A stretch of 64,000 nucleotides of DNA from Eledone cirrhosa. Lineage: Eukaryota. Below are positions 25,171-60,595 of this stretch, one piece after another. The notes below the pieces were generated by a model. The model was not told where the DNA came from, did no database searches, and saw only the letters and a program-made list of their open reading frames with translations. A program made the translations under genes and the position numbers. Where the stretch lies: contig OZ024741.1 in assembly GCA_964016885.1 (NCBI GenBank), forward strand, positions 179,366,001 to 179,430,000, in the 5' to 3' direction. Positions within the stretch are counted from its first letter, which is position 1. Each line of letters begins with the position of its first letter.

Positions 25171-26413
25171 CAGGGTGCGGACGATGTTTGTTATGCAAAT
25201 TTTTTTTACTTCCGTTGTCACTCTTGTCTTCATAAAAACAGTGACTATATTTCCATTATTTATTTTCAGAATAATTGATTATGAATAATTTTGAACCTCC
25301 AAATTCGTGGAAGAGACACAGAGTTCTTCTTGGAATCCGCGCCGGGAGGACAAATAAGGAAATTTCAGAATTTCTCAGCGTCAGCAGGAGAATGGTGGAA
25401 AAGATCAGAAAGGAATTGGAAGATTCAGGATTCGACTACGAAGCAACATCAAAGAGGAAAACACATGATTGACGATCTGACGCCCGAGTTCATCGCTGAA
25501 GTTCAGGATATCATCAACAATGAACCTAGCAAGTCGATGCGTGCCATTGCAAGGGAGAAAGGCGTGGATGAAAAGCTCATTAGGCTGGTGGTACATGAAG
25601 ACATTTGCTATGTTTCATACAAGATGAGGAAAGGACAATTTCTTTCAAAAGCGATGCAAGAAAAGCGACTGAAGCATGCAAAGAAGCTGATCAACAAGTT
25701 GAAACACCCACTGGAGCCAGACATGCTGTGATTTTTCTCCGACGAGAAAAACTTCTGCCAAGACCAGAAGATCAACTCCCAGAACAACAGGTGGCTTGCT
25801 GTCTCATCCAAAGACGTGCCCAGAGTCATGCAGACAAAGTTTCCAGCAACAACATTGGTCTTAGGTGTCGTCATGCCACCTCCCTTCTTCCCTGAGGGCC
25901 TCAAGCTGAACACCAATGGCTACATCCGCGTTCTGAGCGAGGTAGTAAAGCCCTTGATAGACCAGGTAGCTGCAGGTAGGCCGTACGTGTGACAGCAAGA
26001 CACAGCGCCCTGCCATACCAGCCGAAAGACCCAAGCCTGGCTGTCAGAGAACTTCGTCGACCACACTTCACCTGACATCTGGCTTCTCAGCTTACCTGAC
26101 TGCAGCTCGCCTTGACTTCTTTGTGTGGGGCACAGTGGAACGAGACACCAACAGATCTAGCTGCAAAACGAAAGACGATCTGAAGGCCAGGATCACAAGT
26201 GCCCTTAGGCTAAGTCGAGGGACGAAGGCCTGTAACCGGTTCCGAGGCTGCCTTGAGGCCGTCATCAAAGCCAATGGCGGGTTTATCGAGTGAGATCGAA
26301 AGAACAAGTCATGAAGACAAACTGATCCAAATTTGATAAATATATCTTAAAAAATAAAACTACTTTGTTATTTTTTCCTAGACAGTAATCTTGCGAACAA
26401 ATCTCGTCCGCAC
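25171..26413 (+). mobile_element. Tc1/mariner-superfamily DNA transposon, DD37D (maT-like), defective
   Basis: TIRs cagggtgcggacgatgtttgtt / aacaaatctcgtccgcac with TA flanks; transposase pieces KSMRAIARE, FSDEKNF, QQDTAPCH and PDC..LDFFVWG (37-aa spacing), with stops and frameshifts. Confidence 0.88.
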
Positions 26414-26420
26414 ACATATA

Positions 26421-26640
26421 ATTCAGGAACGATCGACTTTCGTCAAATCGGACCGAGGAAACAATGTTTCCGTTGGTCTTTCCAATTGCTAATACTAGCT
26501 ATCGGTCACAACTCCAGGTAGAAGGAGCAACGTGAAATAAAGTGTCTTGCTCAAGGACATAACACATCGCCTGGTGCAGGAATCGAACTCACACCCTTAC
26601 GATTGCGAATCCAATTCTCTAACCACTCAGCCACACGCCT
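26421..26640 (-). mobile_element. tRNA-headed SINE with a related head/core but a different 3' part
   Basis: aggcgtgtggctgagtggttagag...gagttcgattcc...ccttgagcaagacac on the minus strand. Confidence 0.75.
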
Positions 26641-26710
26641 TCACACATATATATATACATATATATATGTGTATATATATATATACATACATATATATAC
26701 ATATATATAT

Positions 26711-26817
26711 ATATAAACAAGGTTTAGTAAATAATGAAAAAGTTTCAAAATAAATTTTAAAAAATTGACTTTACCTACTATAGTTACCTTTACCGATCGG
26801 TTTCGAATCCCAAAAAT
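26711..26817 (-). repeat. Inverted partial copy of the 483-bp unit (equivalent to 27086-27192) at the array's 5' junction
   Basis: atataaacaagg...taccgatcggtttcgaatcccaaaaat is the reverse complement of the unit segment spanning the 3' half of the hammerhead. Confidence 0.92.
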
Positions 26818-27033
26818 TACTACTACCTCCACATACGTTGAGAACAAACCGGGTCATTCCGACTGCTGCTGATAACAGCGGTGGCTAGTTCGACCTACCT
26901 CCTTTTGCCTCTATCTTTACTACGGCCCTTGATAAACCTGTTCTACATCATCCACTCTCATCCCAGGAACAGTCTTTGATAGCGCTGGTTTGTGATTTAA
27001 ATTCAGGAATTTTATATTCTTTGAATGAAAAGA

Positions 27034-27117
27034 ACCTTCTGACGAGAATCTCTCTTTGCAACGAAGGCCGTATGGCCTACGTTTTATTTTTGGGATTCGA
27101 AACCGATCGGTAAAGGT
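27034..27117 (+). ncRNA. Type I hammerhead ribozyme, unit 1
   Basis: Stem I ACCTT/AAGGT; core CTGACGA; stem II GAATCTC/GGGATTC with a long insert; GAAA; stem III ACCG-at-CGGT (palindrome ACCGATCGGT); cleavage after GUA (27112). Confidence 0.88.
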
Positions 27118-27516
27118 AACTATAGTAGGTAAAGTCAATTTTTTAAAATTTATTTTGAAACTTTTTCATTATTTACTAAACCTTGTTTATATTTGTTCTG
27201 GCTCGTTAATTTATTAACCCGCCATTGAACCACACTGGCACTTGGTTGGACAATACATGCGTACCTTGACGCCTTGTGCGTGAAAGGACGTATTTCATAT
27301 TACTACTACCTCCACATACGTTGAGAACAAACCGGGTCATTCCGACTGCTGCTGATAACAGCGGTGGCTAGTTCGACCTACCTCCTTTTGCCTCTATCTT
27401 TACTACGGCCCTTGATAAACCTGTTCTACATCATCCACTCTCATCCCAGGAACAGTCTTTGATAGCGCTAGTTTGTGATTTAAATTCAGGAATTTTATAT
27501 TCTTTGAATGAAAAGA

Positions 27517-27600
27517 ACCTTCTGACGAGAATCTCTCTTTGCAACGAAGGCCGTATGGCCTACGTTTTATTTTTGGGATTCGAAACCGATCGGTAAAGGT
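27517..27600 (+). ncRNA. Type I hammerhead ribozyme, unit 2
   Basis: Same sequence as the unit 1 motif, +483. Confidence 0.88.
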
Positions 27601-27999
27601 AACTATAGTAGGTAAAGTCAATTTTTTAAAATTTATTTTGAAACTTTTTCATTATTTACTAAACCTTGTTTATATTTGTTCTGGCTCGTTAATTTATTAA
27701 CCCGCCATTGAACCACACTGGCACTTGGTTGGACAATACATGCGTACCTTGACGCCTTGTGCGTGAAAGGACGTATTTCATATTACTACTACCTCCACAT
27801 ACGTTGAGAACAAACCGGGTCATTCCGACTGCTGCTGATAACAGCGGTGGCTAGTTCGACCTACCTCCTTTTGCCTCTATCTTTACTACGGTCCTTGATA
27901 AACCTGTTCTACATCATCCACTCTCATCCCAGGAACAGTCTTTGATAGCGCTAGTTTGTGATTTAAATTCAGGAATTTTATATTCTTTGAATGAAAAGA

Positions 28000-28083
28000 A
28001 CCTTCTGACGAGAATCTCTCTTTGCAACGAAGGCCGTATGGCCTACGTTTTATTTTTGGGATTCGAAACCGATCGGTAAAGGT
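28000..28083 (+). ncRNA. Type I hammerhead ribozyme, unit 3
   Basis: Same sequence as the unit 1 motif, +966. Confidence 0.88.
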
Positions 28084-28482
28084 AACTATAGTAGGTAAAG
28101 TCAATTTTTTAAAATTTATTTTGAAACTTTTTCATTATTTACTAAACCTTGTTTATATTTGTTCTGGCTCGTTAATTTATTAACCCGCCATTGAACCACA
28201 CTGGCACTTGGTTGGACAATACATGCGTACCTTGACGCCTTGTGCGTGAAAGGACGTATTTCATATTACTACTACCTCCACATACGTTGAGAACAAACCG
28301 GGTCATTCCGACTGCTGCTGATAACAGCGGTGGCTAGTTCGACCTACCTCCTTTTGCCTCTATCTTTACTACGGCCCTTGATAAACCTGTTCTACATCAT
28401 CCACTCTCATCCCAGGAACAGTCTTTGATAGCGCTAGTTTGTGATTTAAATTCAGGAATTTTATATTCTTTGAATGAAAAGA

Positions 28483-28566
28483 ACCTTCTGACGAGAATCT
28501 CTCTTTGCAACGAAGGCCGTATGGCCTACGTTTTATTTTTGGGATTCGAAACCGATCGGTAAAGGT
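28483..28566 (+). ncRNA. Type I hammerhead ribozyme, unit 4
   Basis: Same sequence as the unit 1 motif, +1449. Confidence 0.88.
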
Positions 28567-28749
28567 AACTATAGTAGGTAAAGTCAATTTTTTAAAATTT
28601 ATTTTGAAACTTTTTCATTATTTACTAAACCTTGTTTATATTTGTTCTGGCTCGTTAATTTATTAACCCGCCATTGAACCACACTGGCACTTGGTTGGAC
28701 AATACATGCGTACCTTGACGCCTTGTGCGTGAAAGGACGTATTTCATAT

Positions 28750-28782
<33 letters not shown>

Positions 28783-28784
<2 letters not shown>

Positions 28785-29535
28785 TCTCCTCTTCCGACCA
28801 TCTCTTCATGGAATACTCACATGTGGAACTTGACCACCGTGGAATCTACTACCATCATAGGAGTTTACCAACATTTCAACCACATCCTCTTACGGAATCA
28901 CCTATATAACTCACCCACACACACACCCACAACACGCTTAAACCCCACACGCACGTGCTTTCCACCACATATTTACACCTTCAGCCTCCGGATTCCTCTC
29001 CCCCCACCCCTCTATCCACACACGCACACACACTCCGACCTACACCCCACCCACACACACCTCTTCCTGAAAATGCAACCCCGTTCTTCCCCCAACCCTT
29101 GCTTTCACATACACACATACACACGTACACCTACACACACACACCACCTTCAGCCCTCCTCGCTCGGACACCCCGTCTCCCTCTCCCCACCCGCCACCAC
29201 CCCTACACACCCTTCCACCACCTGTTTTACCCCTTTTTAATTTCAGTTTATTTTGATCATGCTTTTATATTTATTTTTATTTCATTTCATTTAATTTTGA
29301 TCATGCTTTATTTTTATTTTCATTCGCACCAATTCCTCCCACCCCCTTTTCGCTATATGTCTCTCCACCACTCCCCTACACACCCTTTGAACTCTCTTCC
29401 CACACACTTCTCACCTGAGGAAGGGCTTATGCCTGAAACGTCGTTCCCCACCACCACCCCACTCTCCAGAGCATGAAATTAATAAACATTCGTTGTACTG
29501 CCTCTCTGTTTTGTTCCTGTTCAAATTTTCCATTA
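28783..29535 (+). mobile_element. Probable PLE 3'/pLTR remnant with a minimal hammerhead (29412-29445)
   Basis: ac-CTGAGGA-AGGGC(ttat)GCCT-GAAACGTC-gt followed by AATAAA; C/A-skewed UTR-like sequence; TA tracts on both sides. Confidence 0.6.
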
Positions 29536-55210: not shown

Positions 55211-55429
55211 TACACATGCATGCATGTATATAATGGCTGCATCTCAGTTTCGAGAATTGCCATCCCTTGGACACCATATCAAGGATTTCCATGTCCAGTA
55301 TATATAAGAGTGTGTTTGTGTGAGTGTAAGTATAAGTATGTATATATATATGTATATATATATATATATTATTAAAAAATTATAAAAATTATAAAAAATA
55401 AACAAAGAAGCCTTCAATACATCAAAAGT

Positions 55430-55486
55430 CTTTATTAGCTGACAGTGTTTCGTCCCATTAATAGGGACTCATCAGAGCAAGTAAAG
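55430..55486 (-). ncRNA. Minimal type I hammerhead ribozyme in the inverted PLE arm
   Basis: Reverse strand reads GCT-CTGATGA-GTCCC(tattaat)GGGAC-GAAAC-act-GTC-AGC with a perfect stem II. Confidence 0.88.
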
Positions 55487-56602
55487 AGACAAGAAGTATT
55501 AACGGCCAGAACAAACCAAAACTCAGAAGAACAGGGAATTTATATCTATGAAAACTTAGGAAAGACATCATGTAAATATATGCTAAAGCTAAAAGTGTGT
55601 ATTTGCAAATATAGACTATAGGGCAAGAGAGCGAGTAATATGTCAAACCCACGTTGAAAGTACAGTATAAGACAAATACATGAAACACAACATGGTAATA
55701 CAATGTGAGAATTATAATAAGATATAGAATACAATATAATGGATAATGAATACAATATAATGGATAATAAGAAATAAAAAGCTTAATATATATATATATA
55801 TATATATATATCCATATATATACACATTTACACAGACACATACTAACACTTATTTAAATATTTAAATATAAATAAACTCTTTATAATATAATAATCATTA
55901 TAATAGAATAACCACCCTGACGGTGTGCATAAACAATACCAAAAACAATGGAATAATATACTGACATTACAAAATATATAAAACTACATCATACGTATCA
56001 TTTAAGGTCAACAATTTGTATATAAAGTTTTTCACAGGGTAAGAAAAAATATCAAATAAAAATAAAGTATGGTGAAAAAAATATATATAAATATATATAA
56101 TATTGACAATAAATATACAGAGGTATAGGCAGTTCAAATTCATAAAATATTACAAAACAGTACCTCAATATCGGACATATATTTATAATTCAATTACATA
56201 AAAATAATATGACATATTAATGTTAATATTACAATAGCAGACACAGAATCAATGGAAAATGCTTAAGACATATTTACGCGATGAACACAAGGAGACATAT
56301 TATGAGACAATAACAGATGATAGGAAAACAGACAGCATGTGGTAGTAAAAAATAAATAAAATAAAAACGAAGAACAAAAACAAAAACAAGCACAGACACG
56401 TAGGCGTTACAAGTCATTAGGTAAATATAGATGATATTACTATTCTAAATCAAAGAATTGAATTGAAAATCTTATTAAATTAATTAATACTAAAATTGTT
56501 TAAAAGACATCATGGGTCACTTCACATTCAACAGAACCCAAGTCATCAAAGTCGAATAAAATCAAGATATTTCAATAAAAAAGCTAAAAGATCTATCAGG
56601 AT

Positions 56603-58894
56603 ATATTACGATCCGTCCCGACGAATAACGTTATCAAAGAAAAACTTAAGAATATTGTTAAGGATGTTAAAGGGAATAAGTCTATTCTTGTCCCGGCTGA
56701 CAAGACTAAGAATCTTTACTCTATGGATTATATTGCCTACCGTAATTTTATTTATAAGGAGCTACATAAAAATTACAAAAAGACAACGCAGGATAATTTA
56801 GATCAAATTAATAATGAGGGCCTCAAGATAGTTTCCGATCTGGGTCTTGATAAGTATACCCAACCATATTACGCCAGGGAACCGAGATTCACACTTAAGG
56901 ATCATAAGGTAGACTTCTTAAGTAATCCTACTGTTAGACTTATCAGTCCTTCTAAGTCTGATATAGCTATAATTAGTAAGAAAATTCTTGACCTGATTAT
57001 ACCTACCGTTAGGGAAAAGGTTCATTTTAATCTATGGGGGAATACTGTGGATGTTATTGATTGGTTCTCTGGTATTAATAAGCTTAAGTCTAGTAAGTTT
57101 ATCCAGTTTGATATAGACGCCTACTACACGTCGATATCACCTATCCTCCTTAATAAAGCCTTAATTATGGCCATGCGAATGTCTAGTCTTACGAGACCCC
57201 AGATTGATGTTATACTAGCCGCCCGTAGGACTATCATCAAATTCGAGGATACACTTTGGACGCGTAAAAACACACCCAACAACTTTGACGTTACCATGGG
57301 TTCGAGTGATTCTGCGCAGGTAACTGATCTTGTTGGGCTGTACCTCTTGAACGAACTTTATGTTAGCTTTCCGCACCTTAAAGGTGGACTTTATCGTGAC
57401 GATGCATTATTTGTGATAAACTCTAGTACTAATAGCATTGAACATACTAGGAAGAAGTTATATAAATTTTTTTTAAATGTTAACCTTTCGATCACGATTG
57501 ATAAGAATGATAGAGCAGTTAACTTTTTAGATGTGACATTGGACTTGGTCACTAATGATTATAAACCCTTCCACAAGCCAAATGAGACACTCTCTTACGT
57601 TAATCCTAATTCCAACCACCCTAATTCTATGATTAGTTCTATTATTAATGGTGTATCTAATAGAATCTCCACACTCTCTAAAAATATAGGAATCTTTAAT
57701 TCACATGCTGAGTATTATAATAATGCCCTAACCAATTCTGGTTACTCTGGTAGAATACATTATAAAGATGACAATCTTGGAATTACTCCGATTACCCATA
57801 ATAACGTGATATCCCATAATATGGCTTTGAACGGGAGAAGAAAATTTAGGAATCATAGAAATTTTATAGATATATCCAAACCGAACCCTATGTATAGCTA
57901 CCGCAATAGTAATCGTAATAGTCAGTCTAATGGTACACATTTCGAGATTAGTTCTAATAGGCACGATAGGCGCTATGTACGTTCACCCAGTGGTAATGTT
58001 TTAACGGCTTCTAATAGTGTTAATTCAACTGGTCCTCGTATTAACCCTGATCCTAATAATAGGATACGAGATAGAAATAGAAATAGTAAAGGTAAGAATA
58101 GGAGGAGGCTCAATACTTACTTTAACCCGCCTTATAATCATGAAGTATTAACTAATATCCCTAGGTCTTTCTTTTCTATTTTAGAGAAAAATTTCCCTCC
58201 TACTAATAAATACCATAGTGTCTTTAATAAGAATGTAATTAAACTCTCCTTCTCTACCACCTCTAACATTAATTCTCATCTAGCTAGTACTAATAATAGG
58301 AAAATTAGGGACAGCTACTGCTCTTTGCTTACCATTAATCTAGATAGCTCTAATAATAACTTACCACCCGAGCAGATCTTATCTTCTAATAACCCTAGGA
58401 ATAATGCATCGCGTAATCAGCTAATCACTAGTACCCGGAAGTGTAACTGTAGATTAAGTAATAACTGCCTTTTGAATGGTCACTGCCTCTCTATGAATAT
58501 TGTTTATGCATGTGAAGTTAAGACTAATTCTTCTTGTAGAACATATATAGGCTCCACATCTAATACTTTAAAAACTAGGTTTAATTCACATGTTTCTAAT
58601 TTTAAGCATATCAAGTTTAAGAACTCTACTTCTTTGGCACACCATATCTGGGATTTAAAAGGGGCTGGTATACCATATAGCCTAAATTGGCGTATAGTAG
58701 CACAATCTAATCACCTTTCAACACACGCTAAATTCTGTAATCTTTGTATCTTAGAGACCCACTCTATAATTTTCTCTAGGAACGTATTACTTAATAGAAA
58801 ATCTGAAATATTTTCGTCCTGTCCGCATGCTATTTCTAATTCCTTCTTCTATTATAGACCTAAAAACTCTGGTAGTTTAAACCGCATCCATTAG
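56603..58894 (+). CDS. PLE reverse transcriptase + GIY-YIG endonuclease (N-terminally truncated; frame is open upstream of Met 56723)
   Basis: VPADKTKNLY upstream of the Met, TLKDHK, RLISPSKS, FIQFDIDAYYTSI, FDVTMGS, GLYRDD, VNFLDVTLDL, FNPPY, CNCR..CLLNGHC, IVY...TYIG, RFNSH, CNLC..E, LLNRKSE...CPH; no stops or frameshifts. Confidence 0.95.
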   Translation: MLRSVPTNNVIKEKLKNIVKDVKGNKSILVPADKTKNLYSMDYIAYRNFIYKELHKNYKKTTQDNLDQINNEGLKIVSDLGLDKYTQPYYAREPRFTLKDHKVDFLSNPTVRLISPSKSDIAIISKKILDLIIPTVREKVHFNLWGNTVDVIDWFSGINKLKSSKFIQFDIDAYYTSISPILLNKALIMAMRMSSLTRPQIDVILAARRTIIKFEDTLWTRKNTPNNFDVTMGSSDSAQVTDLVGLYLLNELYVSFPHLKGGLYRDDALFVINSSTNSIEHTRKKLYKFFLNVNLSITIDKNDRAVNFLDVTLDLVTNDYKPFHKPNETLSYVNPNSNHPNSMISSIINGVSNRISTLSKNIGIFNSHAEYYNNALTNSGYSGRIHYKDDNLGITPITHNNVISHNMALNGRRKFRNHRNFIDISKPNPMYSYRNSNRNSQSNGTHFEISSNRHDRRYVRSPSGNVLTASNSVNSTGPRINPDPNNRIRDRNRNSKGKNRRRLNTYFNPPYNHEVLTNIPRSFFSILEKNFPPTNKYHSVFNKNVIKLSFSTTSNINSHLASTNNRKIRDSYCSLLTINLDSSNNNLPPEQILSSNNPRNNASRNQLITSTRKCNCRLSNNCLLNGHCLSMNIVYACEVKTNSSCRTYIGSTSNTLKTRFNSHVSNFKHIKFKNSTSLAHHIWDLKGAGIPYSLNWRIVAQSNHLSTHAKFCNLCILETHSIIFSRNVLLNRKSEIFSSCPHAISNSFFYYRPKNSGSLNRIH

Positions 58895-59940
58895 CTGCTA
58901 TATTTCCTTATCTCTTTGGTTTTAGTTCATTATTATCACCATTATTAGTTTTCTACGGTTTTTCGTTTTTAGTTTTCATAGTCTTTTTAGCTATCTTACC
59001 CTATCTATCATCTTAACCATTATTACATTTTTACTCACCATTGTCGCCTTATAAGTTCCTATCTTTATTTTCATCCCTGGTTGGAGGGTATCTTATTGAA
59101 TAGTTTAATTTTAGTCTCCTACATCTAAGGCTAATGAACCTCGTCCTTTCTACACCTAATAGATCTTTTAGCTTTTTTAGTGAAATATCTTGATTTTATT
59201 CGACTTTGATGACTTGGGTTCTGTTCCATGTGAAGTGACCCATGATGTCTTTTAAACAATTTTAGTATTAATTAATTTAATAAGATTTTCAATTCAATTC
59301 TTTGATTTAGAATAGTAATATCATCTATATTTAACTAATGACTTGTAACGCCTACGTGTCTGTGCTTGTTTTTGTTTTTGTTCTTCGTTTTTATTTTATT
59401 TATTTTTTACTACCACATGCTGTCTGTTTTCCTATCATCTGTTATTGTCTCATAATATGTCTCCTTGTGTTCATCGCGTAAATATGTCTTAAGCATTTTC
59501 CATTGATTCTGTGTCTGCTATTGTAATATTAACATTAATATGTCATATTATTTTTATGTAATTGAATTATAAATATATGTCCGATATTGAGGTACTGTTT
59601 TGTAATATTTTATGAATTTGAATTGCCTATACCTCTGTATATTTATTGTCAATATTATATATATTTATATATAGTTTTTCACAATACTTTATTTTTATTT
59701 GATATTTTTTCTCACCCTGTGAAAAACTTTATATACAAATTGTTGACCTTAAATGATACGCATGATGTAGTTTTATATATTTTTTAATGTCAGTATATTA
59801 TTCCATTGTTTTTGGTATTGTTTATGCACACCGTCAGGGTGGTTATTCTATTATAATGATTATTATATTATAAAGAGTACATTTATATTTAAATATTTAA
59901 ATAAGTGTTAGTATGTGTCTGTGTAAATGTGTATATATAT

Positions 59941-60036
<96 letters not shown>

Positions 60037-60331
60037 CTTTTTATTTCTTATTATCCATTATATTGTATTCATTATCCATTATATTGTATTCTATATCTTA
60101 TTATAATTCTCACATTGTATTACCATGTTGTGTTTCATGTATTTGTCTTATACTGTACTTTCAACGTGGGTTTGACATATTACTCGCTCTCTTGCCCTAT
60201 AGTCTATATTTGCAAATACACACTTTTAGCTTTAGCATATATTTACATGATGTCTTTCCTAAGTTTTCATAGATATAAATTCCCTGTTCTTCTGAGTTTT
60301 GGCTTGTTCTGGCCGTTAATACTTCTTGTCT

Positions 60332-60388
60332 CTTTACTTGCTCTGATGAGTCCCTATGAATGGGATGAAACACTGTCAGCTAATAAAG
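60332..60388 (+). ncRNA. Minimal type I hammerhead ribozyme in PLE 3' region
   Basis: GCT-CTGATGA-GTCCC(tatgaat)GGGAT-GAAAC-act-GTC-AGC; stem I extends via cttta/taaag; GUC cleavage triplet. Confidence 0.85.
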
Positions 60389-60595
60389 AATTTTGATGTA
60401 TTGAAGGCTTCTTTGTTTATTTTTTATAATTTTTATAATTTTTATAATTTTACGGCTCTGTTGAATTACATTGAGCTATACCTTTACTGTCATTTCTCTA
60501 ATACGACGAGTGTGTTTAACTCCAACGCACTCAAGTATTTTAATCTTATATATATATATATATATGTATGTGTATATGTATATATATATATATAA

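Follow-up and report, generated by a model that had tools for sequence, protein, structure and literature searches.

A dispersed 483-bp hammerhead repeat family in Eledone cirrhosa with paired insertion ends of the Penelope-like type

How does a small non-coding ribozyme RNA return to an animal genome? For retrozymes the question is open between two proposals, one for the copying of RNA circles into tandem complementary DNA (cDNA) by the reverse transcriptase (RT) of Penelope-like elements (PLEs) (accessible part of PMC7229834), the other for local expansion in the DNA (accessible part of 10.64898/2026.07.22.740005), while the accessible part of PMC8557442 calls for work on the mechanism behind the inverted ends and one-sided tails of PLEs. 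Both matters meet in a 64,000-nucleotide (nt) stretch of Eledone cirrhosa DNA (assembly GCA_964016885.1, contig OZ024741.1, positions 179,366,001 to 179,430,000 of the forward strand; hereafter the window, in whose numbering positions are given), which at 26711-28754 holds a tandem array of 483-bp units, each with a hammerhead ribozyme. With moderate confidence we read the array as a non-LTR retrozyme (LTR, long terminal repeat), likely mobilised in trans by a PLE (the Hydra clade is the probable one) and inserted by two events of target-primed reverse transcription (TPRT) on what was likely a single, circular 483-nt RNA. The family answers at the level of sequence, in ways open to test: its start sites are fixed and paired, an insertion nearly always carries a single haplotype, and arms stop more often near the ribozyme junction.

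The array and its family

Tandem Repeats Finder (TRF) gives the array a period of 483 bp, with 4.0 copies and 99% matches over 26816-28754. This sense arm, on the plus strand, amounts to 4.01 units, numbered from 26818 with later copies from 27301, 27784 and 28267, and the four units differ at exactly two positions, 26987 and 27892 (unit positions 109 and 170). On its left, overlapping it by 2 nt, lies an inverted arm on the minus strand (26711-26817), 107 nt that are a 100% reverse complement of unit positions 269-375 and carry the 3' half of the ribozyme only. TRF places (TA)n target tracts on both sides (26647-26715 and 28753-28780). The copy ends on the left, at the 3' end of the inverted arm, with what we call site A (unit position 375), and on the right, at the 3' end of the sense arm, with site B (483 to +8). 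Between the two sites, as delimited by a tally of arm ends, runs a non-duplicated plus-strand tail of 113 nt (28642-28754), which opens with a predicted hairpin (28646-28672, plus strand). Over the array the longest ATG-started frame has 44 codons and the longest stop-free stretch 81, and the GC content of the unit is 39%, below 50%. The initial annotation, made from the window alone, had pointed to four near-identical units, an inverted partial unit, (TA)n flanks, the lack of a credible protein-coding frame and a non-duplicated tail of about 115 nt, all of which are borne out. The array is one young insertion of a dispersed non-coding repeat family.

In the 3.0-Gb genome of the window, a search with the unit gave 1617 candidates, and exact matches numbered 1,142 for a 25-mer of the hammerhead and 1,808 for a 22-mer of the tail (reversed controls: 0). 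Loci were read in three samples. The first holds the 40 best by unit similarity. The second comes from the first 100 hammerhead matches on contig C1, which included 42 new loci, of which 40 were used. For the third, the first 100 tail matches were followed until 40 new loci had been reached. Together with four loci met by chance beside PLEs, these make a tally of 124 loci (given below with the letter L) and 131 blocks; L114 is a single insertion that a later one has split. Extrapolating the C1 density, we estimate that there are more than 1,000 loci genome-wide. Copies are 100% to about 75% identical and keep a unit length of 483-489 bp throughout; 107 of the 131 blocks hold fewer than three units, the largest holds 12, and single arms reach 10 units. 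Blocks so small and so dispersed do not form a classical satellite, and against the single locus or satellite block that the initial annotation had named as its counter-case stands a TA-flanked family whose 40 best candidates, when scored, were 40 separate loci. A layout of LTR, internal region and LTR was absent at all loci examined, the primer binding site and polypurine tract not having been searched for, and because the targets are (TA)n tracts a target-site duplication cannot be delimited. At L106 (position 2183) and L114 (226-2452), later insertions interrupt copies at almost the same T-rich site (unit positions 343-351).

Two arms, two ends and one repeated unit

What, then, do the ends of these insertions say about how they were made? 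In the tally, 184 of 193 arm 3' ends lie at one of two sites about 110 nt apart. Site A is exact in 100 of 105 A ends, and site B always follows TA, falling at unit position 483 (43 ends), +2 (16), +5 (14) or +8 (4); TA-rich sequence adjoins the 3' end in 100 of 105 A arms and in 77 of 79 B arms. Two head-to-head arms are present in 62 of the 131 blocks, and these pair A with B in 57 cases, A with A in one and B with B in none, the other four having a damaged end. The two arms are thus A plus B in 57 of 58 scorable two-armed blocks (p 2e-16 against 50%), and short second arms that the aligner missed, in at least L041, L121 and L154, are A plus B by eye. Head-to-head junctions show overlaps of 0-8 nt (8 being the maximum of the aligner) or fillers of 1-19 nt. 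This geometry of 5' truncation, inverted copy and a tail at one end only is a PLE-type signature. The retrozyme-like nature and the insertion signature read by the initial annotation at one locus hold in the genome-wide samples.

The next question is where the second arm comes from. In twin priming of the L1 kind the arms do not overlap. Of the 57 AB insertions, 4 have arms that are not nested in either direction, and the spacing of the two 5' starts shows a uniform distribution (Kolmogorov-Smirnov p 0.38); among the AB insertions of the first two samples the longer arm is A in 16 and B in 24, and both arms exceed one unit in 14 of 40. Non-nested arms, uniform starts and the fact that either arm can be the longer argue against L1-style twin priming and against fold-back, in which the inverted arm would arise when the first cDNA primes itself, or would be copied from a template in antisense, as the accessible part of PMC3846280 proposes for PLEs, and the A/B offset would come from resolution by the endonuclease. 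Fold-back would account for the same haplotype in both arms, and a few junctions resemble its product (six arm pairs have 5' starts at most 10 nt apart, and the junction of L036 is near-palindromic); yet the start distances are uniform overall and one insertion, L151, has arms from different subfamilies, and we regard fold-back as highly improbable. In our reading both arms come from RNA, usually one and the same RNA: in 53 insertions the arms have 580 minority alleles in common and disagree at 40 informative sites, of which 10 fall in L151 and many others at one homopolymer edge.

The variants within arrays bear on how one unit becomes many. In the first two samples, columns with at least three copies hold 160 single-copy variants against 4 common to a subset of copies, the latter being two events in adjacent units and one homopolymer edge. 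Another class consists of 22 variants, each confined to a single insertion and carried by every copy in it, seven of them in both arms; in L126 two such variants run through 12-13 copies across both arms. Among 36 young insertions there are 19 haplotypes, and all units and both arms of one insertion nearly always carry the same one. Gradual homogenisation would leave many intermediates, and 4 against 160 argues against it; copying from a linear donor array cannot fix a new variant in all units. The variants speak for a bottleneck of one unit. Arms cross the predicted ribozyme cut site 299 times, with an indel in 2 of these crossings; since a cut linear monomer would offer a template of only 80 nt from site A or about 190 nt from site B, a closed monomer is the simplest template. 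From these sequence patterns, repeated copying of a covalently closed monomer is the simplest reading and a likely one, and amplification of a DNA circle ahead of transcription is possible.

Local expansion would explain the arrays differently: solo PLE end repeats or single units would insert and then multiply by unequal crossover or slippage. Adjacent units have variants in common in L057 and L066, so that some local duplication or conversion does occur, and the unit is laid out like the pseudo-LTR (pLTR) of a PLE, with hammerhead, site A, tail and site B in this order. Local expansion does not, however, lead one to expect opposite arms that are both multi-unit, as in the 14 of 40 insertions above, nor variant genealogies that are star-like within arrays, arm lengths that obey a constant stop rate tied to landmarks of the RNA, or a unit of 483-489 nt that persists over 25% divergence. 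We consider it very unlikely as the source of the arrays.

Three positions, 248, 310 and 316, are A or G in an all-or-none manner per insertion and never mosaic. All seven site conflicts of the young group involve A>G at one of these sites, and parsimony in that group, read by eye, gives 7 to 9 A>G origins against one T>C (Fisher p 0.059 to 0.024, post hoc); over the fixed variants of all clusters an A>G excess was not significant (p 0.065 and 0.26). Adenosine-to-inosine (A-to-I) editing on one RNA circle might explain the three sites, which we offer as a lead only, borderline and post hoc, and template recombination explains the site conflicts too.

Reverse transcription also seems to leave a trace near the ribozyme junction. 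Arms stop at unit positions 289-306 in 26 of 316 passages (8.2%) against 154 of 6172 elsewhere (2.5%), about 3.3 times as often; the interval spans the predicted cut and was chosen post hoc, with a scan-corrected p<0.001. These stops may be run-off at a cut end, a stall at a ligation junction or a pause at structure. In a different account a PLE would likewise prime twice, its template being the long linear RNA of a donor array, which the ribozyme has cut in part; no circle would be reverse-transcribed, and homogeneity would come from homogeneous donors or from earlier amplification at the DNA level, for instance as an extrachromosomal circle of the monomer transcribed in repeated rounds. In its favour, excess stopping near the cut is seen in arms that exceed one unit as well (17 of 104), uncut RNA would be expected to give seamless crossings of the cut site, and in vitro the ribozyme is dispensable for an anole PLE, which inserted without needing its own (accessible part of PMC11167929). 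Linear copying, however, can neither lengthen an array nor give every unit a new variant, whereas arms of up to 10 units, 19 haplotypes in 36 young insertions, the scarcity of intermediates and the absence of A/G mosaics at the three sites are what is seen. A linear template is unlikely in our estimation.

Ribozyme, candidate mobilisers and mechanism

Each unit has a hammerhead of type I, as the initial annotation had it, with core and all three stems in the four copies: stem I is ACCTT/AAGGT (5 bp), the core is CTGACGA, stem II has 7 bp and a 39-nt extension, GAAA follows, and stem III is ACCGATCGGT, which is palindromic, with a GUA site. A motif scan places the copies on the plus strand at 27034-27117, 27517-27600, 28000-28083 and 28483-28566, the first being further described by covariation and fold, and predicts a cut after unit position 295, that is after 27112, 27595, 28078 and 28561. 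The predicted 483-nt monomer RNA between two cuts (27113-27595, plus strand), which would form the circle, has a folding z of -3.2 when linear and -3.3 when circular, and the active-type fold of copy 1 (-24.2 kcal/mol) lies 2.1 kcal/mol above the minimum of -26.3. Among 67 natural copies, all distinct, pairing holds in 96% of cells, and both sides have changed in 8 of the 21 pairs; the covariation score of 0.213 was reached by 0 of 500 shuffles and slid controls gave at most 0.061, figures that count related sequences and not events and so lend support, not a probability. Conservation of the fold across the family, with covarying stems, is supported on this comparison. In 72 older insertions conservation is 0.98 in the core and 0.996 in GAAA against 0.865 at positions 1-100, and the hairpin after site A stands at 0.986, a value inflated by the choice of one sample. 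The centre of stem III varies (AU 54, CG 6, UA 5) in a way that keeps it self-complementary, and a separate pattern search that allowed four central dinucleotides found it palindromic in 93 among the 100 matches listed. A stem III that stays self-complementary would fit cleavage as a dimer, which the accessible part of PMC6765202 describes for PLE hammerheads.

Which enzyme could have inserted such an RNA? The window itself offers a candidate, separate from the array, in a 5'-truncated Hydra-clade PLE with the A+B two-arm layout (55371-60547, plus strand), whose frame of 768 amino acids (56588-58894, plus strand) carries RT and then GIY-YIG and whose hammerhead motifs lie at 55475 on the minus strand and at 60343 on the plus strand. 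Its C-terminal GIY-YIG, DKT, CxCX5C linker, CxxC, CxH and (TA)n target are those of Hydra in the accessible part of PMC8557442; RWK falls in its missing N-terminus and is present in a second family, Hydra-2. Pfam returned no family for three PLE frames, and an assignment of the neighbouring element to Naiad was rejected on domain order and motifs. The family of the neighbouring element, Hydra-1, studied in 20 loci and the window copy, ends about 51 and 152 nt past the cut and is A plus B in 6 of 6 cases with both outer ends seen; Hydra-2 (10 loci) ends 33 and 111 nt past the cut, is A plus B in 3 of 3, and has a hammerhead similar to that of the unit, with CTGACGA, a long stem II and GGTA. A hairpin beginning GCTC stands directly past site A in all three TA-targeting types with arms. 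A motif common to the site-A regions of the unit and the Hydra PLEs can be aligned by eye and was rejected as not above shuffles.

Since no local alignment score rises above shuffles, it is the geometry, the target and the style of the ribozyme that speak for the Hydra assignment, and by these analogies it is fairly likely that the mobiliser belongs to this clade. The unit has no significant match to the ends or pLTRs of Hydra-1 and Hydra-2, other PLE families not having been tested exhaustively. The match that the initial annotation saw between the array and the PLE at 55.4-60.5 kb thus holds in geometry and fails in sequence, which makes that element a representative of the candidate clade, not a proven partner. 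Hydra-clade PLEs are very abundant and young in this genome: a first look gave 91,216 and 44,194 candidates, and stop-free frames run from 719 to more than 900 codons. According to the accessible part of PMC8557442 only a small number of Hydra families are found outside cnidarians.

The unit might instead be the pLTR of a rare autonomous PLE, the arrays being truncated by-products of its transposition. The sampled loci are only about a tenth of the 1,000 or more estimated, about 80 of them picked regardless of similarity, so that a parent might still exist at a few percent; the Hydra-2 hammerhead is similar, and at L179 and L189 a damaged end of the unit lies against a fragment of a PLE gene, with no layout common to the two. 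Against this, the unit stands as pLTR of a PLE gene with RT and GIY-YIG in cis at 0 of 124 loci, none of 59 loci of the oldest subfamily (partly overlapping the 124) has it past the end of a PLE gene in pLTR layout, and no homology links it to the pLTRs of Hydra-1 and Hydra-2. PLE pieces near units are set apart by TA tracts or oppositely oriented, and Hydra genes beside motif matches in L070, L104, L116, L119 and L121 were rejected as parents, being separate insertions with TA between. The pLTR origin, raised as a counter-case by the initial annotation and seen at no sampled locus, is in our judgement very improbable indeed.

A further PLE family, a canonical one, is represented directly to the right of the array by the 5'-truncated 3' end of a young element (28781-29535) with a minimal hammerhead at 29415. 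It has 1479 candidates genome-wide, and in L146 the C-terminus of a GIY-YIG-type frame lies upstream of such a 3' end (by eye); as a partner of the retrozyme it is disfavoured, since 0 of 20 insertions are head-to-head. At L070 (6657-7510) 70 nt of the 3' end of this canonical family stand head-to-head against a B arm of the retrozyme, and no TA separates them, which could be either a mixed co-insertion or a nested event.

The mechanism that we propose would begin with the transcription of tandem copies, which the hammerhead would cut, the palindromic stem III probably allowing it to act as a dimer; monomers would then be ligated to circles, as known retrozymes and the covariation suggest. A PLE RT/GIY-YIG dimer, the presumed enzyme, would cut both strands of a (TA)n tract, the target seen at the insertions. 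One DNA end would prime at site B; the other would do so 110 nt upstream on the RNA, at site A, in keeping with the ends and A+B pairing observed. Each polymerase would run a variable distance, often for several laps of a rolling circle; the observed lengths give a stopping rate of about 2.5% per 18 nt, which rises to about 8% in the vicinity of the ribozyme junction. The two cDNA ends would then join head-to-head by short microhomology or a few filler bases, as at the junctions observed, and failure of one side would produce a one-armed insertion. There is a precedent in the accessible part of PMC11167929, where a PLE in vitro cuts both strands and extends them, starting at two internal sites that delimit the tail. 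More tentatively, and with somewhat less than even confidence, we speculate that this amounts to rolling-circle twin TPRT in the animal germ line, in which the polymerases of a PLE dimer, started at A and B, would chase each other round one circle with strand displacement. If this is true, each change on that RNA, including A-to-I edits at 248, 310 and 316, would be stamped into all units of both arms, and PLEs in general would owe their inverted pLTR and one-sided tail to the strict A+B rule.

Several observations besides L057 and L066 weigh against the circle-templated, PLE-mobilised retrozyme. L095, with two A arms, is the one exception in the tally, and in the oldest subfamily, whose loci stand outside the 131-block tally and which uses the same sites A and B, arms end off-site in L203, L225 and L256. 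At L151 (4068-4601) the A and B arms come from subfamilies 12% apart and are still A plus B, so that one RNA per insertion is not a strict rule; this insertion would represent two RNAs in one event. Near the cut there is no sharp stop at 296, with 1 start in 294-298 among 127 arms and the stops spread over 289-306; several of them are attributable to TA microhomology, and they would fit partly cleaved linear multimers and a circle equally. The check with Rfam suggested by the initial annotation was negative, as no family reached its gathering score in the window and none of the 18 matches at E<=10 in 26600-27800 was to a hammerhead family, probably because of the long stem II. Outside Eledone, 8 of 9 Xenopus retrozyme dimers failed to cleave in vitro (accessible part of 10.64898/2026.07.22.740005). 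As to the partner, 151 to 742 of 1000 shuffles score as well as the site-A region does against the Hydra PLEs, which is not significant, and no autonomous parent was found in the sampled loci.

Some further elements were met on the way. A second hammerhead tandem family occurs at L073 (8052-9207, with an inverted arm) and L075 (7990-9901) with a spacing of about 531 and 562 bp, and the genome seems, by sequence, to hold several retrozyme families. More hammerheads with a long stem II ending in GGTA, followed by a short end and TA, lie at L033 (442), L075 (754) and L107 (3300-3420). An abundant small element that inserts into TA, has a long hairpin and often forms head-to-head arms (L078:8035-8243, L136, L138, L145 and L194) showed no hammerhead that we noticed. 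To the left of the array, the window holds a decayed frame at 25500-26290, which we take to resemble a Tc1/mariner transposase.

Comparison with known systems

The retrozyme class, the PLE link and the length of 483 nt are already in print, and it is the junction-level and haplotype evidence that is apparently new. Our search of the literature, mostly outside subscription journals, brought up no paper that treats this 483-bp family, the pairing of A with B, or haplotypes as evidence that insertion is by rolling circle, and the family, which the initial annotation suspected to be undescribed, does seem to be a large retrozyme family that has so far escaped description. Its sequence has each sequence-level feature looked for, except sequence in common with a partner, and would place it in that class. 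The suggestion of PLEs as mobilisers gains from the insertion signature; as an idea it is not new, having been argued in the accessible parts of PMC7229834 and 10.64898/2026.07.22.740005. A 483-nt RNA and Hydra-clade frames from the same genome, of the length given above, are named reagents for experiments, and for the building of RNA-templated insertion tools an RT that acts in trans and turns small circles into (TA)n insertions would be of interest.

The non-LTR retrozymes of coral, mussel and axolotl (Cervera and de la Pena 2020, PMC7229834), with units of 150-450 bp, are alike, as far as the accessible text goes, in their non-coding tandem repeats, one type I hammerhead per unit, GC content below 50%, dispersal, dimers to multimers and coexistence with PLEs. 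The Eledone unit is slightly longer and inserts into (TA)n without a definable duplication, its head-to-head arms with fixed ends A and B are not described in that text, and unlike those retrozymes it is known here from genomic DNA alone. The vertebrate retrozymes that Li, Clavereau and Pollet (2026, 10.64898/2026.07.22.740005) treat as PLE derivatives of 51-972 bp are, in the accessible part, likewise non-autonomous, PLE-linked and mostly of fewer than 8 units, and the Eledone unit falls in their length range, so that its length, which the initial annotation took to exceed that of most animal retrozymes, is not exceptional. Their evidence is co-occurrence and pLTR trees, whereas ours is insertion ends and haplotypes without pLTR homology, and their main text does not contain the words junction, tail, target site or mollus-.

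Among PLEs, the non-autonomous Chlamys elements of green algae, such as MRC1, resemble the family in being non-autonomous and in inserting as multiple head-to-tail copies, and differ in having no canonical hammerheads and a 3' sequence common with autonomous partners (accessible part of Craig et al. 2021, PMC8557442). Hydra-clade PLEs, in the same source, are alike in (TA)n targeting, canonical hammerheads and a tail at either end, and two of their families in the Eledone genome have the same A+B layout; the unit differs in encoding nothing and in lacking a significant sequence match to the two families tested. The closest parallel in mechanism is the anole Poseidon PLE (Frangieh et al. 2024, PMC11167929), for which the accessible part describes two internal start sites past the hammerhead that bound the tail, an AT-rich target, extension of both strands and a predicted dimer. 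Its tail has 30-40 nt against about 110 nt in the Eledone unit, and its start sites are non-homologous, whereas sites A and B both end in TA and could pair with the primer. The anole element, finally, makes no difference between strands in its use of the sites, whereas in Eledone the two ends of an insertion almost always use different ones.

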